A stretch of 64,000 nt of DNA from Tetramitus jugosus (lineage: Eukaryota > Protista > Heterolobosea): contig OW569356.1 of the NCBI GenBank assembly GCA_937625935.1, forward strand, positions 1 to 64,000, given 5' to 3'. A program made the translations under genes and the position numbers. A model generated the notes under the pieces. That model searched no databases. It saw only the letters and a program-made list of their open reading frames with translations, and was not told the DNA's origin. Shown here piece by piece: positions 781-32,800 of this stretch (position 1 is its first letter; every line of letters starts with the position of its first letter).

Positions 781-2251
781 CACACCCCGAGGATCTTCGC
801 ACTTGCCTCATTGTGGTTCTGATTGGTGTGAGACTGTTTGGTTGTGGTTGATCCATTTTCCAGAAATATTTGACCAGTTCTTGTGCATCTGTGTGTTGCT
901 GAAGATCTTGTAGGTTGGCGACATTTTGAGAACAGAAGATTGACATTCGTTCATACGCGTCGATTGATTCATCTGAGTTCCAACCCACATGTCTCTTGAT
1001 TGCCTGTCTTACACTGTCCTTAATGATACCGTATCTCAAGATGCTAGTTAGGAGTGCTTGACAGATATGTCCACTTCGTAATGATCTCATAGTGTATCTG
1101 CATTTCAATTCCTCTGCAGAACTTTTTTTCATCAAGTTTGACATATCTTTGGATGTCATTGGTTGTTCACTAGTCGATTGGGTGAATAAAAATTCGTCTT
1201 GTGCTCCTTCAACTAATCTATAATCACCTGAATTGATCACTTCCTCTAACGTTGGTGAAACAAAAACCTTCCTGATGTGAAAGAGGTACCAAAGAAGAGC
1301 AAACACTGGACATCGATTCAAGTCACTACTGCCGTATACAGTGTTTCTTAACTCATGTCCTCCAACACCTTTGTTCTTATAACCCACATTCTGGGCAACT
1401 AAATACAAATGTTCATCGTTTTTCAAACTTGAAAAGGTGATGTGTCTCAATTTCATATAGGAAAGAGTGTCTCCTCTCCATCCAACATGTCTACCAAACA
1501 TTATGAGAGCTCTCAACTTAATTTGTAGTTCTCTGTTGTCTCTCTTGTGCAATTTTTTCTGCCATTTCTCTAAATCATTGTTGAGCAATGGGCACACTTT
1601 AAATTTCGAGTTCCCGTACTTTCGTATCAAAGCTCGGAAGAGTTTATGTATAAAATCCTTCATCTCTTTCTTCAAGTCGATTCCTCTTTCCTCCTTCAAT
1701 ACAGAACATAGTTGATTCCAGAAGCAGTTGACGACAGTACTATGACTGTATTTGTGTATCACTCGCATATGCAAGAGATATAATCCAACTACAAACTTGT
1801 TTGGGTTGTAAGGGTCAACTGTTGTCAACTCTGAGTGCTTGTTTTCTTGCTCCTTTAGCCAGCTAATCCAACTCCTCCAGGCATAGGCTTGAACCAGTTT
1901 TGTACCAGGAGCTTTAGATAACTCTAATAGATTCATCAATTGAATCATTTGATCCTCAATTGATTGGTTCTCATCGATGTTGACGGTCACTTGACGGCAA
2001 AAATCTTCTCCTCCACCTGTTTTCTCCATTCTCTTGATAGGATTAAACGATAGGTCATCCGTCACCTTCTTTATTCCTGTTTTTCCTGCTAACATTGAAA
2101 GCTCCTTGTCAATGTCTTCCATCGTTGGACCATCAACCTCCTGTGGTTCGAAAGAGTCTTCAACAATGATTAGACCATTAGAAACAAAAGGATGAGAAGG
2201 AGACTTTTTTATTCTTTCTAACTGATTGGAGTACTCTTCTTCTATTGTCAT
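781..2251 (-). CDS. Tyrosine recombinase (Cre/phage-integrase fold), ~490 aa, no stop codon before the telomere; absent from the ORF track
   Basis: Manual translation from ATG 2251 ([10 protein letters not shown]...) is open to 781. Core-binding-like region ([21 protein letters not shown]...VVGLYLLHM...YSHSTV); box [15 protein letters not shown]259[12 protein letters not shown]; K292 (GYKNKGVGG); [10 protein letters not shown]; EFLF; YTMR389SLR392SG; IKRHVGW424NSDESIDAY433ER. The W-to-Y spacing of 9 equals Cre W315/Y324. Confidence 0.92.
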
Positions 2252-2256
2252 TGAGA

Positions 2257-3060
2257 TTAGTTGGTTTTACTCTTTTTTTTGTTGGGACCGCTGGACGAGC
2301 TTCGTCTCTTGGAACCACCAGAGGTAGAGGTGGAAGGAGACGTGGCATTATCGCCTCCATTTTCTCTCATCTTGATAAGGAGTTGTCTAATTCTGGAAGG
2401 CATTCTATCCTGAGACAACAATTCCTTCTTGATGTTATCATCAATTGTAGAAGGACTATGTTGGGACATGACCCAATACGGGAAGGCTTCTAATGCGGTC
2501 ATACTTTCTACCATCAATTTTGGACTTCTTAAAATGGAAGTGGTCTCCAAATTTGAACTTCTCTCATTGAAGACAAGGGTTAAATGGACCAAGAACTCTC
2601 CGACTCGGATCTCTCTTAGGAAACTCTTCAATTCCGATCCGATCGGATCCGCACCCTTAATGGTTCGGAAAAGATTCGCCCCCTCCTCTCCGGTCTCCCT
2701 CTTACGAATCGCATACCTCATGCAGGCAACGATGGACACGTGTTTTCGGAGTCGTTCAAACTCCTGATCACTCATTTTGGCCATCTGACCAACCGTTTCT
2801 TGAGAATGGGGAGGCCTTTCCTCAGTCTCCACAATGACCAGAGATCTCTCCAGCCAATTCAAAGCCTTCTTTGCAGACTCACTTGGTGGAATTTCAATTT
2901 CCAATTCTTCACACAGTTCAGAGAGCTTCTCAATCTCTTGCTTCTTGTTGTTGAGATTCAATAAAGCATCTCTTAGTTGGCTTGTAAGGCTACTATTGGA
3001 AGTCTTCTCTTCCTCCAATTTTTTCTTCAAGTCTTCAATCTCCTTGCTCACCTCCTTCAC
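2257..3060 (-). CDS. ORF1 of the YR element: orphan protein with N-terminal coiled coil and basic C-terminal NLS-like tail; 5' end uncertain
   Basis: 267-aa ORF ends 5 nt before the YR ATG. The frame stays open upstream to 3159 without an ATG; the nearest ATG (3209) is in another frame, implying a frameshift or intron. Confidence 0.65.
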   Translation of the reverse strand: MKEVSKEIEDLKKKLEEEKTSNSSLTSQLRDALLNLNNKKQEIEKLSELCEELEIEIPPSESAKKALNWLERSLVIVETEERPPHSQETVGQMAKMSDQEFERLRKHVSIVACMRYAIRKRETGEEGANLFRTIKGADPIGSELKSFLREIRVGEFLVHLTLVFNERSSNLETTSILRSPKLMVESMTALEAFPYWVMSQHSPSTIDDNIKKELLSQDRMPSRIRQLLIKMRENGGDNATSPSTSTSGGSKRRSSSSGPNKKKSKTN

Positions 3061-3309
3061 TCCTTCTTTATCTTCACCGATGAAGAAGTTGTTACCAACT
3101 TTGGAGATGATAACAAGTGAACTAATTTTATTACCAGTCGTTGGTAACTTCTCTCTATATCATTAGAAACAATAAAAGAAATTGAGTTAGTTTCTGTAGT
3201 TGTAGACATGATGTAGTTGATAACCTTGTGATTTGTTTTGTTTGCGTTTGTTTTTGATCAAAACTCCGAGATTCGAAAGGAAAAACTTTGTTTATTTGTG
3301 CAGCTACTC

Positions 3310-4800: not shown

Positions 4801-4900
4801 GTACTGACAACGGTTTATCACACCAACATGTGTTCCAATAGTACACTTTTGATGTACATAGGAGGTAGGCAGATGAAGATGGGTCTCATGACAGCTAGAT
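4801..4900 (-). pseudogene. Small duplicated fragment of the NRPS adenylation-domain gene
   Basis: GTACTGACAACGGTTTATCACACCAA..TGTGTTCCAATAGTACACTTTTG matches 16102-16152 almost exactly; similarity continues after a ~17-nt deletion. Confidence 0.85.
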
Positions 4901-5062
4901 CATACTCTCCCAGCAGTTTCAGTTGTCTGAAACGAGCATTGCACACGACGCACTTTGTATCCACGCAATTGAAGATGAATTCCACCATTTAATTGTGTTT
5001 TGTGGTATGCTGGCAGGGAAATCTTTGTCCTCGTTTCAATGTTTTTATGAAGAATAGCTGTG

Positions 5063-8168: not shown

Positions 8169-10004
8169 TCATTCTTCAAGAGAGCATTCTTCAATATGTA
8201 CCTCACCTATACTATCATCTGTCACGATTGTCTCCGCTATCCCAAATCTACTGTCTTCAATATCAAAAACAAAAACAGTGAGATGCAACTTCAAATCAGA
8301 TCTGGATTGCAAGATCAAATGATGATTCGCATAATTCTTCTGCTTCATCTGTGCCAAAGCTTGATTCTTGAACGCTGACAGACCTTTCTTTAATTTGTCC
8401 TGCACAAATTTGTACTCGATAATATGCATTGATCGCTTCAATTTGATGAAAAGATCCAGAGTTCCGTCCAGCGTGGATCCTTCTGCCAAAAAAGTAAGCT
8501 GAGGGAAATGGCGTTTCAAATGAAGCATTGATACGTACAATGCTGCTGCATACACAGCTTCAATCTTGCCAACATTCTTCTCTCCTTGTATTGTCCGGAA
8601 CTTTGGGTGAGGAAAGGACTTGATCAATCTTCCGAGTTGCTCAAATAATTTCTTCATGTTTTCCTCTATCAGTGCTTCTTTCATCTTGATTGTAATATCA
8701 TTGTTATCAACTAACCCCAGTCTTGCTGATAGATCACTAATCAATGTTTCTCGAACAGAATTGTTGGGTACTGTTAGTTTGTTGTCTTTGATCGTCAAGT
8801 ATCCTGTCTCATAAAACAACTTTTGCATTGTTCGTGTTGAGGGTTTGATCAACTCACTCAAGTCGACAGGCTGAGTAAATTTGTTCACCACTCCTTGCGG
8901 TTCAATGATTTCAACAATGGAGTGAACCGTTGGATCAAATAATGTCCATAGGTGCATGCTTCTACCTCTTGCTGCCCAGTAATTTTCGAATTGGTGTTTC
9001 TTCAGAAGTTGATTCAGATCCCAAGGATTCAGAAGCCCTTCTGTTGCATCAGTGCAGAAATTGTAGCCATAATATTCATTGATAATTCTCTCATCCAAGT
9101 TGGCACCATACTTTCGCTCAAGTTCCTCATATGCATTCGGGTATGTATTTCTTACTTCGTCTAATGTATATCCTGTCAGAGCGTGCAAGGATGTATCAGT
9201 TGACATATCGTCAAGATCATTCATCGATGAAAATAGATTGGTATATGAAAACTTGGTCACACCAGTCATAAATAACAAGTGAATCATTGATCCAAGAGCC
9301 TTGAGTGGAGAGAAGAAAGCTCTGAGCACGTCTCTATTCTTCTTTGCAAGTGAAATATTGGCCTGATCTGTCAGATTTTCAGCAATTGCTTTCGTAATTG
9401 GACCGTCATATTCATCAATCAAAATGATTACTTGTCCAGATGGTGAGTGTCTAGCAATGTACAGTATTGTTTCGTGCAACATTCCCTCAACATCATTTCT
9501 GTTTGAAAATGCTGCCTCAATATATGCAGGTATAACCAACTTGTTCTCATAAAAGCTGTGCTTGAGAACACGTATAATACCAGAGACAGGGTCGAAAGTT
9601 GAGCAAAAAGAGAAATCCAAATGTAGTACAGGCATGTCTTTCAACTTTGTGAACAAATCCTCAGAGTTGTAAATCTCAAATTGTTGTTCATTGTTCTCCA
9701 ATGGTCCAAATGCTTCTCTTTTTCCCAAGGCAATAAGTTTCATTTGTTCAACTGTCAAAGATTTTCCCATCTTTCTTGGTCTTGTAAACAAAATCTTCTT
9801 ACCAAATTCTAGTCTCATAATTCTTTCAATCATCTTGGTTTTGTCAACAAACTTGGCACCACGCTCTCGCTCACGAAAAAAGTTTTGGGTTGTTGGAATG
9901 ACCTCGAGAGATTGATTGCGTTGTTGGGTCTTGAGATTGAAAGAACTGCGGTTCATGAAGAGACGATTCGTCCTTGAACAAAAGACACGCGAGGAACACA
10001 GCAT
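8169..10004 (-). CDS. AAA-ATPase-like domain (PF09820 type) plus C-terminal PD-(D/E)XK nuclease (PF08011 type), with a mitochondrial-like presequence
   Basis: FVDKT, RPRKMGKSL (Walker A), ILIDEYD.PI (Walker B), TGVTKFS, YYGYNF, NPW, NYW, LFYETGYLTI, VPNNSVR; nuclease motif E...GTLDL...IIEYK...ALAQM...Y. Confidence 0.9.
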   Translation of the reverse strand: MLCSSRVFCSRTNRLFMNRSSFNLKTQQRNQSLEVIPTTQNFFRERERGAKFVDKTKMIERIMRLEFGKKILFTRPRKMGKSLTVEQMKLIALGKREAFGPLENNEQQFEIYNSEDLFTKLKDMPVLHLDFSFCSTFDPVSGIIRVLKHSFYENKLVIPAYIEAAFSNRNDVEGMLHETILYIARHSPSGQVIILIDEYDGPITKAIAENLTDQANISLAKKNRDVLRAFFSPLKALGSMIHLLFMTGVTKFSYTNLFSSMNDLDDMSTDTSLHALTGYTLDEVRNTYPNAYEELERKYGANLDERIINEYYGYNFCTDATEGLLNPWDLNQLLKKHQFENYWAARGRSMHLWTLFDPTVHSIVEIIEPQGVVNKFTQPVDLSELIKPSTRTMQKLFYETGYLTIKDNKLTVPNNSVRETLISDLSARLGLVDNNDITIKMKEALIEENMKKLFEQLGRLIKSFPHPKFRTIQGEKNVGKIEAVYAAALYVSMLHLKRHFPQLTFLAEGSTLDGTLDLFIKLKRSMHIIEYKFVQDKLKKGLSAFKNQALAQMKQKNYANHHLILQSRSDLKLHLTVFVFDIEDSRFGIAETIVTDDSIGEVHIEECSLEE

Positions 10005-12642: not shown

Positions 12643-12877
12643 AGACAAAGGATTGAATACACAATATTATCCACAATCTTCGTGGTCTTAACTTTGTTTT
12701 AAAAACAATGAACAAGAGAATCAATCATATTTCATATCCAAGACAGTTGGATTGTCCACTCCAAATAACGATGACAAAAGATAGCCCGTTATCACAGCAA
12801 GAACCAACAATCTGCAATTGCGGCTTTGCGATCGATATACCTGGATTCAGAAACGATACAGAGTTGCTTCTTTAATA

Positions 12878-13308
12878 TCAGAGCTGGGAGATGTCTTCCT
12901 CAGTTGTCGTCAAATCAAGCTGAGCAAGGACGACACCCCCAGGTAATCCTTTGAACGGTCTACCTCCTTTTGAATCAATGAATGGATCATATTTAACTAG
13001 AGGTCCAAATTTGTAACCGTTCTGTTCGCAAAGGATACGTGTGAAGAGTGTGGAGCACTCCGCGATGGCCTTTTGGAATCCTGCTTTTTTTCCCAGAACG
13101 ATACTTAATTTCTCTAAAATAACGCCCACGCCATACTTTGATACTTCTGGATCAATTGCAGTGAAAGATTGATACATAACAATGCCAGGCTGTTCGATCC
13201 GCTGATAACCCTCCATCGCCTTGTCCAACACTTCAAACACTGGAGCGTGTCTTTCAATCCAAGTAGGATCAATTGGATTCCCTGGAGAAGCTAACTTGTT
13301 CATGTTGT
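12878..13308 (-). CDS. 3' part of the Ebony-like NRPS (C-terminal half of the AANAT/GNAT-fold domain), separated by the insertion
   Basis: TAIDPEVSKYGVGVIL...GKKAGFQKAIAECSTLFTRILCEQNGY matches the AANAT-like GNAT C-half; joins in frame to 14541 when the insertion is removed. Confidence 0.8.
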
Positions 13309-14539
13309 CACGGGACGGTTTTTTGGTTTTAAAACCGAAAAATAGGTCGACGAATTCCCGTCAAACTCCATTTCCCAAGCCTATGAGGCGAGCTGGACCA
13401 AGGCGAACCCAGATTATAGCAATAACAGTACATTAAAGTCCTATATAAGCAGCTGGAACTGGTATTGTCAAGCCTATAGCTCTTTTCCTACATTTTCAAA
13501 AACCACAATGTCACAAATTTGTTGTGTGAAAAATGGCGACGGAGTAAACAGCAAGCCAGCAAAGCGAGAGCGAGAGATGACATTTCGAATGATAAGTTTA
13601 ATGATGCTAGGTTGTGGCTTGTCTATGTTGTACTGCCATCTATGGTCTCTTGCATAGTAAGCTTTGCTTCTTCCTTCAGATCAAATCGCCTAACACCTTG
13701 CAACATATAGTGAACCTGGATCACTGATATTCCCTTACTTATTGTACAGGAATAAATTCGCACTGATCTGATATTCTTCTAGTCACTTGACAGTCGACGA
13801 GTACAGGAACAACTGGTGCCGTTTTGCCCTTTAGCATGCTAGCAACAGCTCTCTTTTCCTCAGCAGATCCAATCACATACTGATCAATTTCCTTTCCATC
13901 GCGGTCTCTTGTCTCATATTTCATTTGAACGTACATTGACTTGTCCTTCTGGTTATACATCAGGATGACTGGATATGTCAAACAGCATTTCATACCAGTT
14001 CTCGCAATAGATCTTGTTGCTTCATCTCCAAATACATCCTTAAACTTCTTCAGAGACATGATGGCACGGATAGAGTTCTGAACAATGTTTCTAGGGTTCT
14101 GTTTTCCAAACGAATACTCCAATGTACCTCCTACAAATGTATTGTACTCGGATCGTTCCAGACAATTAACAGTGCTAAACCGTTTGAACTCTCTGATTGG
14201 CTTCTTTGCAGTCATACGCTTTCTAATTGACTGCAACACAGTATTCTGAATCATTTCCCTCCTCGATTTGCTCAGTCTTCCTTCACGGGCATCATCATTG
14301 CTGTCTGCACGCCTCCTCCCTCCTTCAGATACTGGACCACTTCTGTATTCACGTCTTCTGAAATCTACTGTCAACTCATAGTCAGCCAAATAAGCTGGTG
14401 CTTGTCTCACACGTGATGGCATGCTTGTTTGTTGTTAAATGTTGACTAACGGTAACGCCGTTGGCCATTCATTGTCATCTCTTTTTTTGTGTTACAATGC
14501 ACAGGATTGTCGGTTTTGAACCCAAAAAACCTTGCCGTG
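13309..14539. mobile_element. Non-autonomous DNA transposon with ~30-bp imperfect TIRs (5'-CACGG...CCGTG-3')
   Basis: Left end CACGGGACGGTTTTTTGGTTTTAAAACCGA vs reverse-complemented right end CACGGCAAGGTTTTTTGGGTTCAAAACCGA (26/30). Removal of 13309-14540 restores the NRPS frame. Confidence 0.85.
13739..14422 (-). CDS. Basic 227-aa orphan protein carried inside the TIR element
   Basis: Intact ATG-to-TAA ORF; no DDE transposase motif recognised. Confidence 0.6.
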   Translation of the reverse strand: MPSRVRQAPAYLADYELTVDFRRREYRSGPVSEGGRRRADSNDDAREGRLSKSRREMIQNTVLQSIRKRMTAKKPIREFKRFSTVNCLERSEYNTFVGGTLEYSFGKQNPRNIVQNSIRAIMSLKKFKDVFGDEATRSIARTGMKCCLTYPVILMYNQKDKSMYVQMKYETRDRDGKEIDQYVIGSAEEKRAVASMLKGKTAPVVPVLVDCQVTRRISDQCEFIPVQ

Positions 14540-14540
14540 T

Positions 14541-16623
14541 AATTATCAATCGCAAGAGAACAACCTACTACTTTACCATTCAATTTTGCAATTATCGATA
14601 AGTTGTGGTTGGGAACCTCCATGAAGAAAGGAGTGAAGAAATATAGTGTCTCTGCAGCTGATAGTCTCAAGAAATTTGCAAGTGGTTCCTCAGTTTCATA
14701 AATTGTTGCAGCAAATAGAGAAACTTCATCCATATCATTCTCATCATAATAGTCGAATGAGATACCTGAATGGAGATCAACTACAGGAAATTGATTTGGC
14801 CAAGTGTGTATATCTGAAGGAATATGGAGCCTATCTTGTTGCGGGCTTTCAATACCTGTATGATATGAATCTGCATGATCTCCAGCTTCAGCAAAATGCA
14901 CCACTTTTGTTGCAAGATCTCGAAGAGTAAAAGAGAGAATGAAATCGCGATGAGAAACAATGATGCCCTTATCCTTTTTCAACTTCATCTTAATCAAGGA
15001 GATGTTCAACGAACTTATGCCAAGAGAATCAATTTCGTCATCAGGTCCCACCTGAATACCCAATATTTGATTGATAGTCTCACACAAATCTGACTCAACT
15101 TCATTCGAATAGTCACTATTGACGGTGATGATTGGTTTATCGAGTTGAGATCGATCAATTTTTCCATTGCAATTCAGAGGTAGCTGATCTAGCACCACAT
15201 ACTTACTGGGAATCATGTAATCCATCAATTTATCTTTCAGAAAGAGTGGAATATCCTGTATTTCGAATTGAGTTTGGCTCAGAGTGAGATATGCAACCAA
15301 AAAGCCAAAAGAATCTGATTCCTTCCAAAACTTTGTGACACACTTCGTCACACCAGGGCACTTTTCGATCAAGATTTCAACTTCTTCTAAGTCAACGAGC
15401 ATTCCTCGAATCTTTACTTGGTTATCAATCCTCCCTAGATACACCAAATCACCGTTTTTGAGTCTCTTACCAAAATCACCCATCTTGTACATCCGAGAAA
15501 AGGTCGAACATGTATCATATTGACACTCTACAAATCTTTCAGATGTTAACAACTCATTGTTGAGATATCCTTTTGCCAGTCCAACACCACTAACAACAAT
15601 CTCTCCCTGATCTGCCAGTTGTTGGAATTCGTCAACAAGATAAACTTTCATACCGTTAATTGGTTGACCAATTGGAATCACTCCTCGATGTACATCACTC
15701 ATTGTAACTCTATGAAATGTAAGATCAGAAGATACTTCACTTGACCCATAGACGTTGAGGAGTGTAACACTGGCTGATAAAGATAGATATTTTCTACTTA
15801 CTTCCACTGATAGAGTCTCTCCACTCGATTCCCAATGATTAAGATGAGGTAAAACTCTTGGTAGATCATACATGTTAAAGAGTGTATCTAACACAGAAGG
15901 AACAGTTGCCAGTCGAGTAACCTTTGATTCTGAGAGAGCTTCCACAAGGACATGAATATCAGTTCTCCAGGAATCATTCACTAGGCGCAGAGGAACACCT
16001 TTTAACAATGGTTGAAATATCTCTGCGATAAAATCTGTAAAGCTCACGACTGTCTTGGAGCAACATACATCATTATCATTGTAGGGGTATGAGTCCCACA
16101 TGTACTGACAACGGTTTATCACACCAATGTGTGTTCCAATAGTACACTTTTGCTTGCCGCTGCTACCTGATGTAAATATGAGGTAGGCAGATGATGATGT
16201 ATCTATTGACAGCCCCAGATTCTGCTCTTCACACTCGCTAAACATGTCCCAATGCGAAAGGATTAAGTGTTCTGTCATATTGTCCATAATTGTCCGAGAA
16301 ATAATCAGAGAAGGATTGGAAACCTGGACAATGTTATTGAATCTTTCTGATGAAGTGGAGGGATCGACAGCCAGAAAAACGTGTCCTGTTTTCAGCACTG
16401 CCAACAATGCAGCTACGAAATCTATACTTCGTTCAATCGTCACCACAATGACTGAACTGCCAGGAAAGTGCATAGACTGGATGTAGTGAGCAAGACGATT
16501 TGCCTTGCGATTTAATTGTTCATAGGTAATGGTAGAGAGGTCACAATCCACCAAACATTCGAAATGTGGATGTAAGGATGCTTGTTCTTCGAATAGGCCG
16601 TGCAGAGTGAGGATTTGTTTCAT
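14541..16623 (-). CDS. Ebony-like single-module NRPS: adenylation + thiolation + N-half of AANAT/GNAT domain (5' part)
   Basis: TYEQLNRKANRLA, FTSGSSGKQK, KTVVSFTDFIAEIFQPL, SSGETL, NVYGSSE, PIGQP, YKMGD, GRIDNQVKIRG, NGKIDR; PCP motif LGISSL; then YETEEPL...LSIIAKLNGKVVGCSLAID. Confidence 0.9.
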
Positions 16624-16750: not shown

Positions 16751-17965
16751 ATGGAAAAATCAAAACTTCTCCTGAAGAAGGAAAAGGCAGGTCAATTCAA
16801 AGACCTGTGGACCACAACTGTGCGAAGAACAAAAATGATATTCCTTGCCATATGGTCCAGCGTCCTCAAGTTCATCGCAACTTTGTTGGGACAGATTTCA
16901 TTTGGGCAAAAAAATTCATCCATGACCATGGAAGATATCGAGTCAGAATGTAAGAAAGGAAGATTGCTAGTTGTTATTGGAGGAAAGGTTCTCGATCTTA
17001 CCCACTTTAAGTATCACTCTGGTGGTTTCGACACCCTGGAGCAATTTAAAGGCACGGATTGCTCTCTTGTTTTCAACCGGGTTCACAAGATGACACACAA
17101 TATTTCCAAGTTTGTTGTGAGTCAAGTTGTTCCCAAGCCAGAACAACCACAGACAATGAAACAAGAAATAATGGAGGATTCAGATATTCTCAGATCTGAA
17201 ACAAGTACAGAATCTACTCGATGCGTAGTGTACAATGACACCGAGAAACAATTTGGTTCACTTGATTCAACTCACTTTGATACAACCCAACAGCCTGATA
17301 TCATGAGAGAACTCGCATTGTTCACCAAATTTATCCGATCTGACCAATATCCGTGTGTAGCAGGCCGAATAGCGTTTGTAAAGAAATCCTTCTGCTTTGG
17401 TCTCTATTCCAGAATGGGAGATCATCAATCGGCATTTAACGTGTGGACTGATCTTGTTCGGTTCATTCGATATCAGAACGCTCAATGGAGAAATGGCAAC
17501 ATATTTACTACTTTCGTTGCGATATTCCAGGGAACTGAAGTTAATGATGAAGATGAATTTCACGATTTACTCTGGAAACATCTGCAGATCATGCATAATA
17601 TCGATCATGAGAAGAAGAGTACTTGGCCATCTCATATTCCTCAGAACGTACTTGATCCACACTTTTCTTTTGTCATTGCAGGACGTCCATTCTTCCTCGT
17701 AGGTCTACATCCTAATAGTTCCCGGAAAGGAAGAACTTATCATGAGCATGCGATCGTTTTCAACTCCAAGTATCAATTTGATAAACTGAGGGAGTATGGA
17801 ATAATGCAGGATATTTTTGCTATCACAAGAGGAAGAGACCTGAAGTTCAATGGATCGATAAACCCCAATTTGATACCCTTAGATGATTACTCGGCAGCGC
17901 TCCAATACAGTGGAAAGGAACTGACAACCACTTCGAAACTGAACTTTGAAACAAACACGAAATAA
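16751..17965 (+). CDS. Cytochrome b5 domain fused to a YqcI/YcgG-family (GntA/DcsA-like) heme guanidine N-hydroxylase
   Basis: b5: VVIGGKVLDLTHFKYHSGG...GTDCSLVFNRVH. YqcI/YcgG: YPCVAG, FSFVIAGRPFFLVGLHPNSSRKGR, VFNSKYQFDKLR, RGRD...GSINPNL, AALQYSG. Confidence 0.88.
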   Translation: MEKSKLLLKKEKAGQFKDLWTTTVRRTKMIFLAIWSSVLKFIATLLGQISFGQKNSSMTMEDIESECKKGRLLVVIGGKVLDLTHFKYHSGGFDTLEQFKGTDCSLVFNRVHKMTHNISKFVVSQVVPKPEQPQTMKQEIMEDSDILRSETSTESTRCVVYNDTEKQFGSLDSTHFDTTQQPDIMRELALFTKFIRSDQYPCVAGRIAFVKKSFCFGLYSRMGDHQSAFNVWTDLVRFIRYQNAQWRNGNIFTTFVAIFQGTEVNDEDEFHDLLWKHLQIMHNIDHEKKSTWPSHIPQNVLDPHFSFVIAGRPFFLVGLHPNSSRKGRTYHEHAIVFNSKYQFDKLREYGIMQDIFAITRGRDLKFNGSINPNLIPLDDYSAALQYSGKELTTTSKLNFETNTK

Positions 17966-18013: not shown

Positions 18014-19555
18014 TTAGGCATTTATTACATAGGTTTCCTTCTCTTCTTGCTCGACCCTCGCAAGAGCGACCTTTGCTTCTTTTCTGAAATTAATTCGCAT
18101 CAGGTACATAATTTGTAATACCGTCATAATGACCAATCCTGACGCAATTCCCAACCAAATACCGCGCAATTTGAGCTTGTAGCCAAAAGCAAAGAGAAGT
18201 CCAACGGGAATACCAACGATATAGAACGCGATAAGGTTGGCTATCGCTCCAATATATTGCAATCCCATTCCTCTGAGAACACCTCCTAATGTTGTCTGTA
18301 TTCCATCAAATACTTGATACATAGACACGATTGGAAGTACCGCAGCCGTTATTCTGATAACTGTTTTGTCTTTAGTAAATATTTTACCAACATACTCCCT
18401 CAACAAAAAGAGACATAGTCCATTGACCACAGTGTAAGCAATTGCAAAACTTGCGCATATGTAAACAGCTACCTTTGCTCGGTGTGGTTCATTTAGTCCC
18501 AATTTGGTACCAACACGAACACAAGCAGCAATTCCTATTGAGAATGGAAACATAAATGTAACGAGCATGATAGTCATAATGATGGAATGGCTGGCCAAAA
18601 ACTTGTCACCCAAAAAACCAACAAACAACGCTGTAACTTCAAATCCCCAAATCTGTAAGCACTCCTGAAAGGAACCAGGAACAGCCAGTTTAAGAATTTC
18701 GTACATATCACGCAATCTGATTGTTTCTCGTACATCACTCAGTATTGATCTAGTTGGGACACCTTCCTCTCCTGTTTCGTTTTCTTTTTTTCTCCACTCT
18801 AACCGAATAGTATAGCTCGACAAACTGATGCAAATGATTATTTTTGTCAAAGACGTTGCTAACCCGCTTCCAATAAATCCTAACGCTTGGTACTTAATAC
18901 CTCTCACCAAAAGAATATTTAAGATGATATTGATGATATTTGCCAGCAGTCCATTCAGCATGGGAAATATCACTACACTTTGTGACACTAAATACCGATT
19001 CGCTATGGAAGAGATACAAAATGGATAGAGTCCAATAGCATTCCAGCGAACAAACTTACCGGCCAAGTGAGCAATATGTGGATCCTGACCCAGCAGAATC
19101 AGAATTTGTTCACTGAACAGAAGCAACAATAATATAGGAAAGGCAGTCAATAACACAATAATAGATGATCGATAAAGCACTAACTTTTTCAATCGCTCAT
19201 TGCCCGCTCCCTCAGCCTGACTCACTAATGTTTCCATTGCCGATAACAATCCAACTGGAAAATATTGGAGGCAAATTGTGTAGGCATTGCCCAGGGATGC
19301 AGCAGAGAGATAATCACCTCCTAAATGTCCCACAAACCAGACATCCACCATGCCCAAAGTTGACTCACAAATGGATGTTATCACTAGAGGCCAGAACAGA
19401 CAAAATAACTCCCATAGTTCAGACCGACCATACAACCTGAACAAAGTCAAAAGACTTGGCGGTTTTTGTTTTAATCTTTGTTTGTTCGCCGGCAGCAAGG
19501 AAGAACGCTCTTCTATTCCCGCTTCTGATTCTTCGATTATGTGCTTGGTTGTCAT
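18014..19555 (-). CDS. MATE family efflux transporter
   Basis: About 12 TM segments; VDVWFVGHLG..LSAASLG, METLVSQAEGA, RVGTKLG, FDGIQTTLGGVLRGMG, GIWLG. Confidence 0.96.
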   Translation of the reverse strand: MTTKHIIEESEAGIEERSSLLPANKQRLKQKPPSLLTLFRLYGRSELWELFCLFWPLVITSICESTLGMVDVWFVGHLGGDYLSAASLGNAYTICLQYFPVGLLSAMETLVSQAEGAGNERLKKLVLYRSSIIVLLTAFPILLLLLFSEQILILLGQDPHIAHLAGKFVRWNAIGLYPFCISSIANRYLVSQSVVIFPMLNGLLANIINIILNILLVRGIKYQALGFIGSGLATSLTKIIICISLSSYTIRLEWRKKENETGEEGVPTRSILSDVRETIRLRDMYEILKLAVPGSFQECLQIWGFEVTALFVGFLGDKFLASHSIIMTIMLVTFMFPFSIGIAACVRVGTKLGLNEPHRAKVAVYICASFAIAYTVVNGLCLFLLREYVGKIFTKDKTVIRITAAVLPIVSMYQVFDGIQTTLGGVLRGMGLQYIGAIANLIAFYIVGIPVGLLFAFGYKLKLRGIWLGIASGLVIMTVLQIMYLMRINFRKEAKVALARVEQEEKETYVINA

Positions 19556-23899: not shown

Positions 23900-26800
23900 A
23901 TGAGTTATCGAAAGCATATCCAGCACGCAGAGGATTGTGAATATTTTTGTACCTGGTTGTCGTACCATGGATATAGGAACAAAAAGGCTGTGGATGAGAA
24001 TTGGAACGCAAAGGAATTAGAGACGGGCAGAGTTCTCGCTCGAGTTGTCAAAAAATTTGACACGCACAATTTCCATGTCTCTGAAAATTTAGCAAAGGTG
24101 AGTTGACCTATCATAAATTAACTTACATGCAATGCTTATTGATGTCTAACACAATTGAAACGAAAACAGAAAGCCAACTTTGAAGAGTTTTCCAAGTTGT
24201 GTAAGAAACACAAGTTAACTGTTCTGTGGGATCCAAAGAAAGCCTATTATGGTGATAAGGTTGAAATAGATCTGGTATGTAGTTGTTTTGTTCATGTGGT
24301 GTAGGTGGATAGCATGCTGACACATTATGATATAGGTTCTCCAAAATCTCATCGAGTTGTGCCTGTCAACAAAACTAAAAGAAAGCGAGGAAAATTCAGG
24401 TCTTTTGTCGAGAGTGAAGGCAGGAATTGGAAGCGGATTTCGGAAGTTGACTTCTACGGTCAGTACGATATTGGAGTCTGGGGATGAATGGAGTGATATG
24501 ATTGAGCACTTGCAACAATGCCAACAAGGAAGAGCTTTGGATCTGCACATAATTAACAGGGGTATCAAATGTGTGGACGGGAGATTAGATTATTTATTCG
24601 ATGGAACCAAAGGACCATCATCCACTGCTGGAAGGTATTGTTTGGAGCTATGGCAAAGTATCGAAAATATGCCAAGAGGACCACTCATTTGTTACCTCTT
24701 GTTGAAGGCTCAAGTGTATTTAGGTTGTTCAAATAGAAGAGAGGAGTATGATAGTACTTTTTTGACGCTTTTGCAGTGGCTTTGCCACAATCCACGATTG
24801 ATTGCCGAGATTCCATTCACTGATGTCTTTCAGCAGCTTCAAAAGTTAAGAGCGAAGCTGACACCTGAAACAGACTTTATTGTGACAATTATATGCATGA
24901 CGCATGAAACACTAACCACCAACACCAACACGAAAGCCAAAGAGATGTGGTATAATTTTCAATTAGGACGAAGGAGGGTTGACTATCGATTGGTATTCAC
25001 TGAAGTTCCATCTTTTGCAAGGATGCATATTGATATATTTGCTCCAAATATGTTCCCTAAACTGCAAGTCCTTCCTGATCAAGTTCCTGATTTATTTTAT
25101 CAGTTGTCAGCTTTCAGAGAGATTTTATCAGGAGTTAATCTTGAGAACCTTGCAGAGAGACTCGCGACTGACCACATGACAGAAGATAACTTCTCATCAA
25201 GTATTGCTCCCATTTCAGCTCTTTGTGCTCAAAATTATAGTCTAATGGAAAAGTGTGCAAAAAAGATGTTCGAACAGCATTATGCGAAAAAATCGTTTGT
25301 CGAGAGTGTATTTTCAACTTTTTCTGGGTTAGATAGCTCGTTGTGCAGGTCAATAATGGATTGCTATGTTTCTGCATTCAAGGACAACATCCGAAAGATG
25401 AGAGTTGATCAGTTTATGTTTGGATATACATTGTTGCCTGAGAGAAATGTATTGTTGGTGCAAGATTTTATTCAACACACTATTTTGACTTCAAACGAAT
25501 TGAAAGGCGTTGTTGAGAGCTACTTGTGTGTGGATGATTCAATAAGTTCTCCGGACAGAATGAAATCCATTTTGACAACTCTGATCTCAAAAAGCAAAGA
25601 CTACACGGACTCATTTTTGTTCATTCCATTGCATTGCACAGAATATTCCAAGATGTTTGAACCATTCGAGAATATTCTATTAGAGATTAACAACCATTTG
25701 AGGGAATTCTTTAAGCAACATCAAAATGGGTTCAATCAAATGTTTACCAAAATTTGTAGTATCAAGCGAGAAGAGAAAGAGTTTGGGAGATTGTTTTATC
25801 TATTGATCAATAGTTTCTTGGGTGTTTATTTTGAAACACAAATGACTGGAGGATCCTCTCTGCATAATCTCATGAATATCATGGGTATTCTCGAAAAGGT
25901 TCAGAGCAGAAGTTCAGTTCATCTCATCGTGTTCAATTCTGCGCTGATGGCCTGTTCCAAGCACATTAGGAACTTAAGATCTGAACCGTACGTGTATATT
26001 CGAACAGGAAAAGGTATTGCTCCATTCATTTCGACATGGAAGAACACTAAGAGCAACGACAAATCACTGATAGCCCAACAGTACAACAATGCGTTCGAGC
26101 AGTACATAAGGAGTATCTATGCAGAGCTTATTGAAGAGGTAACAATGGATGGTGAGTTACTACAAATTGAGGAGCTATTACAGTTGAGAAAAAATTTACC
26201 ACAAGTAGTAGAGCTCTGCAATGCGATTGGCATTAATTCACGATTCGATGGCCAAGTTAAAGATCTACACAATGAACTACAAGTGGCAGAGCGAACTCAT
26301 AAAGGATTAAGCACCCTACTCAATTGGTTGAGGGAGCATAAGTTTGGAACACTAAGAGAGATTGCTAATTCACCCTTGAAACCAATTGAAAACACAAAAA
26401 CGAGCTTAGGTGACTTAAGAGAAATGATACAAGAGACAGAGCAGAGACTAGCAGCTATTTCTGAAACAAAAGATGATTTACTGTACTTCATTGAGAGAGA
26501 GAGTTTATTGTTCCAAGCAGTTCTGAGGACCAAGTTGTCTAACCGAGAAACAAGTTTGAGAACACTCAATAGTTGTATCAGAGAAACTGTTTCGTTCATA
26601 TCTGCATTGTTTGATAACGATCAAATGACAATCAAAAGTTTGGAGGATGTAAATATTGACAGAGTTATCAGAAACATTAGACAGGCTAAAAGAACATTAG
26701 AGAGCGAGTTGTCTATTATCAAAGAGCGCTTCAGCAAAGGTTCTGTTAAGGTGTTTAACATTGATAAATTTGCTGCAGCTTTGAAGTTAAAAGAGTTGAG

Positions 26801-29800
26801 TACACAACTCACCGCACTTCTCGATGCGCTCACACAGTACAATATGGACTGTCACAAAACGGAGCAGGTGAAATTGATAAAAGAGAAATATGATCGATTA
26901 CAAACCCTTCAGGATACCAAGTTGGGAGACGTGCCAACAATTTTAGAAGAATTTGAAAAATTGCTCTGTGGTATGCACAGTTTCCATATGAAGTATTTTG
27001 AGCAATTATGTCAATCTGATTGCAAGCAACTTGTTGAGTTCCTGAAGAATCAAACGGATTTTGCAAAACAGATGGATATTTTGAGAGGGAAAGCCGGCAA
27101 AGACAAGTTCCAAGAAAATGTGTTGAATGCCCTCCTTGTAGCAAAAACTTATTTAGAACCGTTCCTTAACAAAGACACTTCATTAGCAAGTATTGCTGAA
27201 AAGGTGAACAGTCTTGGAAATGAAGAGGAGATTGACTTTAAACTTGAAGCCATTAAGACATGTGCTTCCAATTTAAGTCACATCAAGCTTTGGCTCTCTA
27301 GATCATCACGTATCTCTATTGAAGATACTTATCAAACCATTGAGCAACTGCAAAAGCTTGGGAAGTGGCGTTCTGCTCTCAACAACTACAAAGATGGCGC
27401 TTTCCTTACTATAGAGTACACACTTCAGGAGAACACTCAAATACTAGCGGAGGATGAGTTGAACGATCTTGTAAGAACCGCCATCTTCCACTCTACAGAT
27501 GTGAAAGGTCAAGAACTCGTCAAGTCAAAAATTACATTCCACAACTTCATTGAGTCTAACAAGTATGCATCCAAAGCCCACTTTCTGCGGTTGGCGTTAG
27601 AATCAGCCGGTCATCCTGACTATCAAGGAACCTTTGAATATCTGGGTGAAAAATTGGACAGCACAACTGTTAAACAGGTTCATGATTCATTGTCTAAGGA
27701 ACTTGACGAATGGGAAAGTTGCATTCAACAGCAATACCAGCAAGAAAGAGCAATCTTGAAGCTTTCCAGAACTCAGTATATTCGATTTCTTGGTTTGGTG
27801 AGAGAAGTTTGCGCTGATGTGACCAATGCTAATAAGGAGATTTTGACCCCATTTTTCAATGCATTGTTTCCAAAAGAGAATATTGATTTATCCAACGAGT
27901 TGGTGGTCGAATTATTCGACGAATTGAAAAGGAATAACGCTCAGAGACTCGACTTTAGTGAGGCTGTCGCTCTCATCCAGTTAGTTCGACAAAGGTTAGG
28001 CATTCAGGAGGGTGAAGATGACAGTGAAGAGAACCATCCTACTATTGTGCTCAAAGCTGAACAACTTGCTCCAGTTGATTTGTTGTGTCACACGCTGGAA
28101 AGAATAGAGATGATCGATAATGATTACACTTCGAATCGTTTTGTCGAGCCTGGACAATTATTATGGTGTTCCGAGACTACATCCATCCAGGAGCTAAGAT
28201 GGTTTGACGAGCGAAGAAAAGCATTCGCTGATGTGAACTATGTAATAATTGGTGTTGACAAGTTGTCCTCTTCTGTTCGAGAAGAACTCATCAAGCTGGA
28301 AGCTGACAAATCAAGAAGTGGCAAAACTCATCTTATATTCAACTCTGTGACCGGTTTGGATGCCTTTTCGTTCCTGGATCAAGAGATTTTGGATTCGTTC
28401 CAACAGAACCAACAGTATCGCACGTGGTTGATGGATAATCTCTCCCAATACGCGAACATAAAGAAGATCTCATGTGTGAATGGGGATGATGCATCAGGAA
28501 AGTCGACTTGGATCCGAAAGAGGATTGTGAGTGAGGGAGGTGACTATGTTCGTATTGTGGCAGCTGAAGACTTTTCAACAAAAGTGTTTTTGAATCGTCT
28601 CAAGTCTGCCCAACAAGGTTCAAAGTTAGGTGTACATCTTGACATATCACAATTTGTTGACCTAGATCAGCTAAATGCGTTCTTCTTCAACATTTTCCTC
28701 CAGGGATTGCTGATTGATTCCGCAACAGGAAGTACAGAACTCCTTCCACAATGTGAAATATCTGTTTACTGTGAATTACCGAATCACAATATCAAAGAGT
28801 TCATCCCTCTACTCTCATTATTGGTACCAAGTTCTACTACTATCAAAAACGTTCCATTTGATGTGACTGAAGAGGATCATGAAGCTAAATTGGTGGCTAC
28901 TTTTATTGCTATCAACGATAACAATCATTGGGAAGTTTATGATGACCTCTCTGGATTGGATGTTCTTCCAGCTGAAGATTGTCAACGAATTATTCGATCA
29001 TTCTTTGAGAATAACGCAATTATTGCTCCTACCATGGTTCACAGAACACTATTTGTTCGTCTAATGTATAGCAGATGCAAATTTTTGATGGAACGAACAC
29101 TCATCCGGCAAGAATTACAGCAAGAATATTATGAACCTATTGATCCATATGAAAACGGTGCAATGTTTGGTGTGTTCTTGTTGGAGTGTCAATATATGGC
29201 AAATGACAAGATTAAGCAGGATTGGAGTCAATTGCCTGTCGCGTTTTCAGCTCGCTCTCTAGAGCATTGTGATTTCTTGTACATGGGTGAATCAGATCCA
29301 ATTGCATACATTCCAGAGAATTCAATTAAACGAGACAGCCTCGCACAGGTTCGAGCTGCCTTGACTTCTGCCCTGGGTCTAGGAGGAAGTTTAATAGCCA
29401 TCATGGAGAAGTTTGGATATTGCTTAACTGTTGATTTTGCTGTCAAGCTTCTCTTGTTGAATGAAAGAAAGAGTGCAAAACTACCGGTGATTCTTCAGGG
29501 GAGTACAGGCACAGGCAAGGTATGTTTTCATTTGTTTCCAACTGTTTTTTACTCTGCTCTTTTCGAGTTCTTTGTGTTCACTCGCGTTATTGGCCCTAAA
29601 AGACTGAATTGTTGAGACTGTATGCCGAGATTCAGAACCAAAAAGCAAAATTGAAACCTGATATTGTCTTTGAAGTTCATTTGAGATGGTTTTTGCAGCA
29701 ATATGTGGCCGGTACAGAATCATTCCAACTCTACAAGAATTGTTATGACAAATATGTGCAAGAGAATGGTGTCAGATCGAACAAAACTCTCGACGAACAA

Positions 29801-32800
29801 ATCAAACAGTATAATCCAGCAGTGTTGCGTCGATACTTGACAGAGCAACTGGAACTAGATGAAGACTATTGTAGGACATTTGGAGTTGCTTTGATAGCTA
29901 AGGCGAAGAGTCTTCTTGTTCAATACCCTCTTCTTGAGTTGACTCCCTTCACAAAGAGTATCCTTCAAGCATCAGATGAAGAAGCAGTCGAATCGCTTGG
30001 AACTACAACAAGCATTATGAAATTCATGGAGGAATTCCTGAATCTTCGGGTAGGTGGGGTGTTTCATAAGATAACAATGCACAATGGATGGACTTGCAAG
30101 CAACTGAGAGACAGAATGCATTCGATTATTACTGACACTCAAACCAATGTGGAGAAATATCCAGAGTTTTCAACAGTTGTTTTTATTGACGAACTTAATA
30201 CTTCTAAATGCCTTGGTATTTTAAAGGAAATGTTTATCGATAATACTTTGGATGGTGTACAACTACCTTCTAATATTTTCCTTGTTGGTGCCATCAATCC
30301 AGCAAAAAGCGACGATAAACCAGACGAAGAAGATAGGCCTGAGTATTATGTGGAGCACATGCCAGGATCGATGGACTTGCTCATTCTTGATTATGCAGAG
30401 CTTTCTCAGAGACAGGAGCGAGAGTTTTTGACTGAGCTTGTCAGTGCAAAGAACGTCTCAAGCAATGAAAAAGAACAAAAACAGATTGTTGAGGCGATTC
30501 TATGGTCACAAAAATTTGTGCATGATCAACATTTGTGGCGTGTTCGTGTCTCGATCAGAGATATGGTTCGAGCAATCACCATCTATCAGTACTTAACAAC
30601 TACAAATCCTCTTAAGCTGATTCGAAATCATCATATATTTAATCTCTACACAGCAATTGCTCTTACCTATTACTTCCGCTTGCCCACTGATCGAAGAATA
30701 CTATTCAACCGAGGGTTTCAAGCAAATGTCGTCAAGACAAGTAATTCGATGGATTTTGTTTTCCAAGATGTGTTAAGCGAAGTATTGGATCAATTTTATG
30801 TGAGATTGAAAAATCTGCAATACATCCCAATCGGCATCGCAAAAACGCAAGCATTCAAAGAGAACTTGTTCTGCTGTATCATCTGCATACAAAGTGGAAT
30901 CCCCTTGATCATTACAGGTCCTCCAGGAACCAGCAAAACGCTCAGTTTCAACATTGCCAGCACAACCAAGAATAATTCTACTGAAAAGCTTTTTGATGCC
31001 ATGAGAACAGTGCACAAAAAACATTATCAATGTAATGAAGCATCGACGGCTCAAGAAATTAGTAATGTTTTCAAGACGCAAATTAATATGAAGAGATCCT
31101 TTGAAAAGGCAGGAATGCTTTCAGAGGTGTGTGCTGTATTTTTGGATGAGGCTGGGTTGCCCCAACAAAAGAAAGCAGCAATGAAGGTGATTCATTACTA
31201 TCTTGATCATCCAGAAGTTTCAGCTGTTATTATATCTAATGATATGCTTGATGCTGCCAAGACGAACAGAGCAATCCAACTATGCCAATCAGACACAAAA
31301 CGAGAAGATTTGAAAGCGCTATGTCTTGGATGTTTAATGTTAGAGAATGAGTGCACAGACAAGCAAACTCAAACAATTGAAGCGCTTTGTGAGTCATTTG
31401 AGCAGGTGAACAAGCAATTGAGCGCTTCAAAGAAGGGAGGACTCTTTCATCTGAGAGACTTTGTCTACTTTTTAAGAATGCTGAAACGAAATCAAAAGCG
31501 ATACAACAACGATGTTCTTCATCGGGACAACATTTACTATTGTCTGCAAAGAAACTTCAGTGGTGTTCCAAGTGCTGACTTTTCCAACATTTTGAAACTA
31601 TTCTTTGAATGCATTAACAAGAGGCTGGGCACTCGTGATCCTATTCCTGAACAGAAACAATCATATCTTCAAATCATTCGAGATAGTATCAATGATCGAT
31701 TGATGCCAGAAGAGAATCCAAATGGGGCCCCATTTCGTTATGTTCTCATTTTGGATCCTAGTGATTGTGGTTCTGCAATTAATTTGTTGTTCTCAGAAAA
31801 ATTCATTGATGCGAAGAATACTCAAGTGGTGTGTGTCAGTAACTTCCCAGATGACAACAATGAATTGTCTCAGTCAGCAGTAATCTCAAAAGTTAAACTT
31901 GCAATGGAGACTGGTCAAACAGTTGTTTTGGTGAATTCTGCCACAATCAACACAAATTTTTATGATGTGTTCAATCGACATTTTGCAGAAATGATATCTA
32001 AGAATGAGAAGGATGAGACCGTTACAAGTCATTTTGCGAATGTAGCTGTTGGAGCAACATCAAAGCCTTGCTACGTACATCCACAATTCCAGATTATAGT
32101 TCATATGCCTCAATCCGAATTCGAAGCTGCGCCTCTGCCCTTCTTAAATAGATTTGAGAAATATATTCTAGGGTACAAAGAGTTATTGAACGATAAATTG
32201 AACCAGATGAAGAGCCAGAGAAAGAATAATCATTTGATGTATCAACAATATGAACTTTTCAGAGGATTGAAGAGAGGAGTGAAACATTTTGTCGAGACAT
32301 TCTCAAAATCATCATTTTATGGATTTGTTCAATCAGAGACAATCAATTCGTTGATGTATCAGATATTGTCGAACACAGATATCCATTCTGCTCCGAACAT
32401 ACCTCAACCAATGAGAATTCAAGGAGCATTGATAGACTTGCCATCGAGACTCGAAGAAGCAAAATCAGACGAGACGTCAGCGTATTCCCACCTTCAGAGA
32501 TTACCAGAGTTCATTCGTCGCTTCAACTATCTACTGCTACAAATCGCTCGACCTGAATCTATGTATTTGAGAAAGGCTATCTTGCCAAGAGCATACATGG
32601 AAGAATATTTGACTAGACAGGAACACTTGTCTGCCAAACATTTCTTGAATAATTTGCTTGACCAGCACTTCTCCAAAGAAAATACCTCAATTGGTAAATG
32701 GATGCTCTTCACTCGATCGAGCAGCAACATCTATCAACTATTGAATTCTCCAACAGCCAAGAATCTTTTGTTGGAGACTCTCCGGCGAAATGACAAGCTT

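Follow-up and report, generated by a model that had tools for sequence, protein, structure and literature searches.

The first 64,000 nucleotides of contig OW569356.1 of Tetramitus jugosus (the window) contain two open reading frames (ORFs) on the reverse strand, 14446-16623 and 12878-13303. They raise the question whether they are the parts of a single nonribosomal peptide synthetase (NRPS)-like gene interrupted by an insertion and, if so, what the uninterrupted gene would make. A preliminary description, made from the sequence of the window, had proposed that removal of positions 13309-14540 yields an Ebony-like enzyme with an adenylation (A), a thiolation (carrier, T) and a terminal AANAT-like domain. 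The two ORFs are one gene split by an insertion, and an intact allele exists. The product of the intact gene is an Ebony-like enzyme; it belongs to a microbial subfamily without characterised members and its substrate pocket is altered. The gene is present as intact and as transposon-broken alleles.

One gene split by an insertion

Both ORFs are present as described, and they are the two halves of one NRPS-like gene. Deletion of 1,232 nt (13309-14540; equivalent deletions run from 13306-14537 to 13308-14539) leaves an open frame of 2,514 nt, or 837 codons, with the proposed junction. Among the deletions tested near the ends of the insertion, 286 also left the frame open, so that the open frame alone is weak evidence for the boundaries; these are fixed by a 33-nt inverted repeat and by the empty-site joint seen in sequencing runs. 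The 5' part of the gene (14540-16623, reverse strand, codons 1-695) encodes the A and T domains and, at its end, the initial third of the GNAT domain (Pfam AMP-binding, E 1e-50, AMP-binding_C and PP-binding; TIGR01733). The 3' part (12878-13308, reverse strand, codons 696-837) encodes the remaining GNAT domain and the stop, its phmmer matches lying at the C-terminal ends of proteins of 803-894 aa. The gene has no introns.

The joint 13305->14538, which skips 1,232 nt and at which three letters fit either side, was found in all eight runs examined, belonging to six studies (the other 12 of the 20 listed runs had small word shares and were not used). Five of these studies are distinct from P1, the study that is possibly the source of the window, and the sources include groundwater (X4), two soil metatranscriptome libraries (X8 and X11), organism B (X13) and X9. 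Individual contigs span the empty site, with a shorter side of 184 nt in X4, at least 255 nt in X9, 127 nt in X13, 83 nt in X11 and 70 nt in X8. Because the predicted empty site is present in every run examined, the intact allele exists, as had been anticipated, and the insertion is polymorphic. In X1 the depth was 40 at the joint and 65 and 76 in the flanks, and X3 contained both the joint and a contig across the filled right junction (record 12); filled and empty alleles therefore probably coexist in organism A. What counts against the X3 contig is that only 28 nt lie on its flank side, below the 31-letter bar.

If the element were spliced out as an intron, the filled allele could still work. 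There are 13 GT/GC..AG pairs within 45 nt of the element ends that keep the frame, but none of them lies at the ends themselves, and each removes or adds residues inside the GNAT domain. Moreover, DNA and RNA libraries show one and the same joint, and this joint lacks the GT-AG pattern, which identifies it as the empty allele and not as a product of splicing. Splicing of the element was rejected on these grounds, and we regard it as very improbable. It has to be added that the RNA-library runs consist of contigs and may contain DNA, so the joint found there has no bearing on expression. The insertion point is codon 695, after the third strand of the GNAT domain; consequently the predicted product of the filled allele has 725 aa and retains no more than a third of this domain, and the insertion likely inactivates that copy.

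A second difference between alleles concerns the 3' end. In X1, X4, X8, X9 and X11, loose ends at 12877 and 12887 show that other alleles diverge after Ser835, and in a by-hand reading of 30 letters of the other tail the frame remained open for ten codons beyond this residue without a stop. The predicted length of 837 aa thus stands for the window haplotype and only for it, as the other alleles continue differently. At 12877-12887 these alleles have a longer, different sequence that alters the tail and the stop of the gene. The divergence point is downstream of the GNAT core and beyond the end of the homolog P0121, so the core is unaffected by the allele tails. Fourteen of the 20 listed variants within the gene were silent, compared with 22% expected (P 7e-6; the count rests on the 40 best-supported of 204 rows), and the gene appears to be kept by selection.

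The inserted element (13309-14539) has CAC..GTG ends and 33-nt terminal inverted repeats (13309-13341 and 14507-14539) that are 85% complementary, the best of 24 pairs detected within 12.5-17 kb. The extent given in the preliminary description was correct for the excised 1,232 nt; the element itself is 1,231 nt long, and one T (13308/14540) is duplicated. At this one site, of the target duplication lengths from 1 to 12 only 1 nt matches. A longer duplication (GT or TGT) was considered and rejected: it would need an element lacking its last bases, which is ruled out by the end at 14539 at other sites. Element ends were found joined to other flanks in X11 (13309), X7 (14539 and 13311) and X8 (14541), and the element is also covered by contigs of internally deleted variants. 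Taking together the same ends in other flanks, the internally deleted variants and the empty and filled sites, the element belongs to a mobile family present at several sites in Tetramitus jugosus. No cover inside the element was obtained in X9 and X13, which was not taken as absence of the family.

The single ORF of the element (13739-14422, reverse strand, 227 aa) had no family match in Pfam, NCBIfam, PHROGs and further searches, gave no usable match and is not recognisable as a transposase; the element is probably a non-autonomous copy. CAC..GTG ends are typical of the cut-and-paste DNA transposons CMC/Chapaev and Transib. The element resembles these in terminal inverted repeats that start with CAC, in its polymorphic insertion and in its occupation of several sites. 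It differs from them in having duplicated one base at this site (2-5 nt in those transposons) and in having a lone ORF without a transposase family. No description of one-base target duplications was found in the searched literature, which lacked most subscription papers.

Domains and relatives of the enzyme

The terminal domain is a GNAT domain of the insect-AANAT, polyamine-acetyltransferase or Ebony type, judged by profile searches and by the modelled fold of a close homolog. Its N-terminal part (14540-14796, reverse strand) contains the motif EEPLA, the counterpart of the DEPLN motif of insect AANATs, whose catalytic glutamate serves as the base (PMC6070697); in the alignment this glutamate is kept as Glu646. 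Searches with a profile of the domain matched insect AANATs (E 4e-26 to 1e-11), the chlorovirus protein A654L (1e-17) and the Ebony C-terminal domain (3e-12), and a profile built from fused members only finds 4fd5 with E 3e-10 and Ebony with E 0.0099; Ebony ranks 13th in both searches. In the Atlas the window 3' half is grouped with GNAT and dopamine N-acetyltransferase clusters (0.95-0.97).

The GNAT domain of P0121, which is identical to that of the window at 78 of 212 positions (37%), was used as a structural proxy. Its model (pLDDT 92.5) is closest to the A654L polyamine acetyltransferase (3QB8; Z 27.5, rmsd 1.7, 193 aligned, TM 0.81). Ebony 665-877 (PDB 6DYM; Z 22.8, rmsd 2.3, 199 aligned, TM 0.79) is second, tied with agmatine acetyltransferase (22.1), the agmatine and dopamine acetyltransferases having Z 20-22. 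The GNAT fold proposed for the C-terminal domain is thus recovered with the homolog. It weighs against this assignment that the fold is that of the homolog's domain, and that the window 3' half alone gave a single-sequence model with pLDDT 41 and a best fold-search Z of 4.2, which is meaningless. Neither GNAT half matched Pfam, NCBIfam or PHROGs, phmmer against PDB gave only weak AANAT matches with the 3' half (E 0.09-1.4) and no AANAT match with the 5' part. Neither the 3' half nor aa 500-694 had a match in the word-index protein searches, and plasmid tblastn with the 3' half was likewise negative. The domain shares the fold (Z 20-27.5) and the DEPLN-type glutamate with insect AANATs, agmatine and polyamine N-acetyltransferases and A654L; all of these are stand-alone enzymes that use acyl-CoA (the insect AANATs having about 215 aa), whereas in the window gene A and T domains precede the GNAT domain in one chain.

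When 1.84 billion representatives were searched by phmmer with the 3' half, 15 matches at E<=0.001 were obtained. Among these are four A-T proteins with a GNAT domain at the C-terminus and a length of 803-894 aa (P0121, P0123, P0125 and P0129) and ten shorter proteins, six of which match Pfam Acetyltransf_1. P0124, from the chrysophyte Spumella vulgaris, has A and T domains followed by two tandem GNAT domains, and such a tandem pair is also present in P0122. Both window halves tile end to end on P0121 (7-693 on 51-747, with 40% identity, and 16-132 on 763-877), and likewise on P0123 and P0125. The halves are therefore joined in one chain in these homologs and do not occur there as separate genes. 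Together with the profile search and the homolog's fold, these single-chain proteins bear out the proposal that the gene comprises A, T and a complete AANAT-like domain.

The A-domain tree (FastTree) contained 28 sequences: the window, seven fused proteins, 14 of 66 xD-type and 6 of 51 alpha-type domains (see below). The GNAT tree contained 16 sequences; the fragment P0134 and the near copy P0141 were excluded from it. Ebony was included in neither. In the A-domain tree the window pairs with P0121 (0.97) within a five-member clade (1.0) consisting of the window, P0121, P0123, P0125 and the Spumella protein P0124, and bacterial domains surround this clade; a second clade (0.999) is formed by P0129, L006 and L007, which are bacterial fusions. 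The GNAT tree gives the same two groups, with a support of 0.91 for the five-member clade. This agreement shows that each A-T-GNAT fusion has been inherited as a unit. The window gene belongs to a small, uncharacterised microbial subfamily.

In one phylum, 3 of 401 genomes contained bacterial A-T-GNAT fusions. The bacterial proteins (P0129/P0138, L002, L006 and L007) have the same three domains in 803-852 aa; they differ from the window protein in forming a separate clade in both trees and in being encoded next to MFS transporter or polyamine genes. Since the layout is present in bacteria and in a chrysophyte, it is not confined to animals. The window proteins and P0121 had no match when metagenome, viral and genome contigs were scanned, and no description of a protist A-T-GNAT enzyme was found in the searched literature.

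The A domain (aa 11-488; 15160-16593, reverse strand; Pfam) has the specificity code TDAAESVSDK, including Thr235, Asp236, Ala278, Glu299, Val322 and Lys517 in GrsA numbering. The code positions were set by motif, according to the GrsA motif positions, and were carried to the homologs through BLAST alignments. The best named relatives are bacterial xD-type NRPS modules with 33-36% identity; Asp236 is present in 66 of the 117 usable A-domain matches (xD-type), the other 51 being alpha-type. Asp236 is associated with beta-amino acids, and the xD group with activation of beta-alanine. The bacterial xD-type modules (presumably of the beta-alanine type, VDWxxSxADK) differ from the window gene in being C-A-T or A-T-TE parts of larger assembly lines, where C and TE stand for condensation and thioesterase domains, and among the 120 listed none has a terminal GNAT domain in its Pfam list. 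Alpha-amino-acid A domains retain Asp235 (PMC12283262, PMC11355689). The window domain has Thr in place of this residue and groups with the xD-type domains, and its pocket is of a non-alpha-amino-acid type, although altered.

The identity of the donor is less clear. The assignment of VDWxxSxADK to beta-alanine was not found in the searched literature, and the code TDAAESVSDK equals none of the codes of the 120 A-domain matches, so the donor is uncertain. Glu299 is common to the window protein, P0121, P0124 and P0125 (four of the five subfamily members), whereas P0123 has the code VDAVVSLADK, unlike that of the window. As the pocket is altered by Glu299 relative to the xD group, beta-alanine is an uncertain donor, and Glu299 would suit one that is larger or more basic.

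The T domain (aa 512-572; 14908-15090, reverse strand; Pfam PP-binding, E 5.2e-4) scored 20.7 bits, slightly below the Pfam cut-off of 20.8; the T domains of the homologs pass the cut-off. The motif around Ser537 is present, and phosphopantetheinylation of this serine is predicted from it.

Candidate function and alternatives

Ebony consists of an A, a T and a terminal AANAT-like domain (PMC10510592). In this enzyme beta-alanine is adenylated and moved to the phosphopantetheine on Ser611, where it is attacked by the amine (PMC6070697). The window protein retains Lys517, Ser537 and Glu646, and by analogy with Ebony its chemistry is likely to be similar. The A domain would activate a beta-amino acid with ATP (a donor suggested by Thr235/Asp236 in place of Asp235), the beta-amino acid would be loaded onto Ser537, and the GNAT domain would transfer the beta-aminoacyl group to an acceptor with a primary amine, which is probably agmatine or a polyamine. 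In the filled haplotype the element would interrupt the GNAT domain and likely inactivate that copy. We consider it reasonably likely that the intact allele encodes a single-chain A-T-GNAT beta-aminoacyl-amine synthetase working like Ebony, with a polyamine or agmatine as the probable amine and with a filled copy that is likely inactive. It weighs against this assignment that activity, product and expression are all putative.

A polyamine or agmatine as acceptor is a best guess, made because the top fold match is a polyamine enzyme, because bacterial A-T-GNAT genes have decarboxylase and spermidine-synthase neighbours, and because the neighbour in the window belongs to a guanidine-hydroxylating family. 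In two bacterial genomes of one order (L006 and L007) the A-T-GNAT gene stands head-to-head with an ornithine/arginine decarboxylase gene, and in L006 two spermidine-synthase genes follow the decarboxylase gene (the matching ORFs of L007 were not scanned). The regions 7799-13378 of L006 and 7289-10899 of L007 are candidates for a beta-alanyl-polyamine pathway. Against the use of this evidence, the bacteria with polyamine neighbours belong to the separate clade of fusions.

The neighbour in question (16751-17965, forward strand) is divergent from the NRPS-like gene, with 127 nt between the start codons. It encodes a cytochrome b5 plus YqcI/YcgG-family protein (Pfam PF08892, E 2e-41, and PF00173; NF041366, 194 bits against a cut-off of 145; Cys motif at aa 200-205), which is predicted to be a heme guanidine N-hydroxylase and shares 28-35% identity with homologs on bacterial plasmids. 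Enzymes of the YqcI family hydroxylate guanidines (PMC12866846). In bacteria such an enzyme depends on a reductase supplied separately; the b5-YqcI fusion is a naturally self-contained version. A MATE exporter gene (18014-19555, reverse strand; Pfam MatE, E 6.5e-61) lies 48 nt from the stop of the hydroxylase gene. The preliminary description had mentioned neither of these two neighbours nor the inverted repeats of the element. Bacterial operons combine NRPS, YqcI/YcgG and exporter genes (PMC2922099), and a three-gene protist cluster (NRPS-like, b5-YqcI and MATE) is a plausible lead from the gene order. A weak trace of the pair is also present in a decayed relic (4801-4991, forward strand), which carries a piece of the NRPS gene and possibly one of the hydroxylase gene, in the same order and on the same strand as in the gene pair: 4801-4895 is 77% like 16102-16213 of the NRPS gene (blastn E 6e-22), and 4970-4991 matches 17548-17569 of the hydroxylase gene at 20 of 22 nt (E 0.02). 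In the relic of the NRPS gene 17 nt are missing across the ATP-binding loop. Two points weigh against the cluster: unrelated genes of the window are commonly separated by gaps of 38-260 nt, and the YqcI gene was found in none of the three bacterial genomes with A-T-GNAT, which belong to the other clade.

How close the enzyme is to Ebony itself depends on which comparison is made. The three-domain, single-module layout of about 840-890 aa is shared with Drosophila Ebony (6DYM) and with the flatworm beta-alanyl-tryptamine NRPS, and the window gene has no C or TE domain. As in Ebony, the pocket is not of the alpha-amino-acid type, and the terminal GNAT domain falls in the same structural group. 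A true Ebony ortholog making products of the beta-alanyl-dopamine, -histamine or -tryptamine type, with Ebony dating back to early eukaryotes, would account for the equal size and domain order and for the second place of the Ebony domain among the structural matches, and P0123 of the same clade has a code near the Ebony code. The Ebony-like blocks noted earlier in the A domain are indeed present; they are common to a large bacterial A-domain group and are thus no proof of descent from Ebony. The GNAT domain has retained the EPL motif of the AANAT type, and its sequence is closer to the stand-alone AANATs of insects than to Ebony, which ranks 13th; structurally A654L is clearly ahead (27.5 vs 22.8) and agmatine acetyltransferase is level (22.1). 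Furthermore, the pocket has Thr235, Ala278, Glu299 and Val322, and the A domain nests among bacterial domains in a tree without Ebony. The window gene also differs from Ebony and the flatworm NRPS in being microbial and intron-free, in its pocket altered with Glu299, and in its YqcI-type hydroxylase and MATE exporter neighbours. Orthology is thus, in our opinion, possible but rather unlikely.

Also improbable is a GNAT domain that works as an acetyl-CoA-dependent acetyltransferase on the amine of the carrier-bound amino acid (or on a free amine), release being left to another enzyme. All characterised structural neighbours except Ebony use acetyl-CoA, and the window domain keeps the last G-x-G of the CoA-binding loop. 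Yet the complete R-x-x-G-x-G loop is present in none of eight fused members compared with two of six clear stand-alone members (a weak difference), Pfam scans of 23 large window ORFs revealed no thioesterase, condensation or reductase gene, and the exact layout has a precedent in Ebony (PMC10510592). The gene might also be a decaying subtelomeric foreign gene without a current role, the insertion being one of several hits. It lies 13 kb from the telomere, there is a deleted relic at 4801-4895, the reads contain further internally deleted copies of the NRPS gene (joints 15529->16111, 15609->15716 and 16446->16610), and there is the second polymorphism at the 3' end. On the other hand, the empty allele is open over the whole frame in soil and groundwater samples of five other studies, the variants are mostly silent and the catalytic motifs are kept; decay is, on balance, quite improbable. 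A beta-aminoacyl-amine synthetase remains the preferred assignment for the intact allele.

Chromosomal setting and implications

Positions 1-778 of the window are CCCAAA repeats (778 nt, about 130 copies), and in the heterolobosean Naegleria gruberi TTTGGG is a candidate telomere repeat (PMC3622300). The window is dense with intron-free eukaryotic genes (RGS, C2H2 zinc finger, CTLH and F-box by Pfam). On account of the repeats and the packed intron-free genes, it is the chromosome end of a microbial eukaryote. Ten of ten window proteins are absent from a 15-billion protein collection, and the closest word-index match of the NRPS-like protein has 36% identity. A stop-free frame of 495 codons (781-2266, reverse strand) reaches into the telomere repeats and is preceded by a coiled-coil frame of 300 codons (2260-3159, reverse strand). 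The motifs of the former resemble those of a tyrosine recombinase, Pfam giving no significant match, and the two frames may represent a mobile element of the recombinase type that is truncated by the telomere. A bacterial-type AAA-ATPase-like and PD-(D/E)XK_9 nuclease gene (8169-10004, reverse strand; Pfam) lies inside the eukaryotic subtelomere. Two adjacent very long ORFs of 1,752 and 2,829 aa (24357-38098, forward strand) have no Pfam matches.

In insects and flatworms, Ebony-type enzymes are the source of signals and of precursors of pigments, and the descriptions are from animals (PMC10531068, PMC11214079). The earlier statement that such enzymes are characterised mainly from animals holds for these descriptions, but the same layout occurs in bacteria and in a chrysophyte. 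In its widest form, which we put forward tentatively and consider doubtful, the proposal would be that a compact three-gene pathway of a protist makes and exports an undescribed N-hydroxyguanidine amide (e.g. beta-aminoacyl-hydroxyagmatine), that the A-T-GNAT layout arose more than once or far predates animals, and that an active transposon family with one-base duplications provides a natural knockout allele.

The microbial A-T-GNAT subfamily bears on the origin of Ebony, and its intron-free genes with a different pocket offer easily expressed enzymes and possibly new amide products. The finding points to secondary metabolism in a protist group for which the searched literature describes none, and the filled and empty alleles in one species provide a natural comparison for finding the product.

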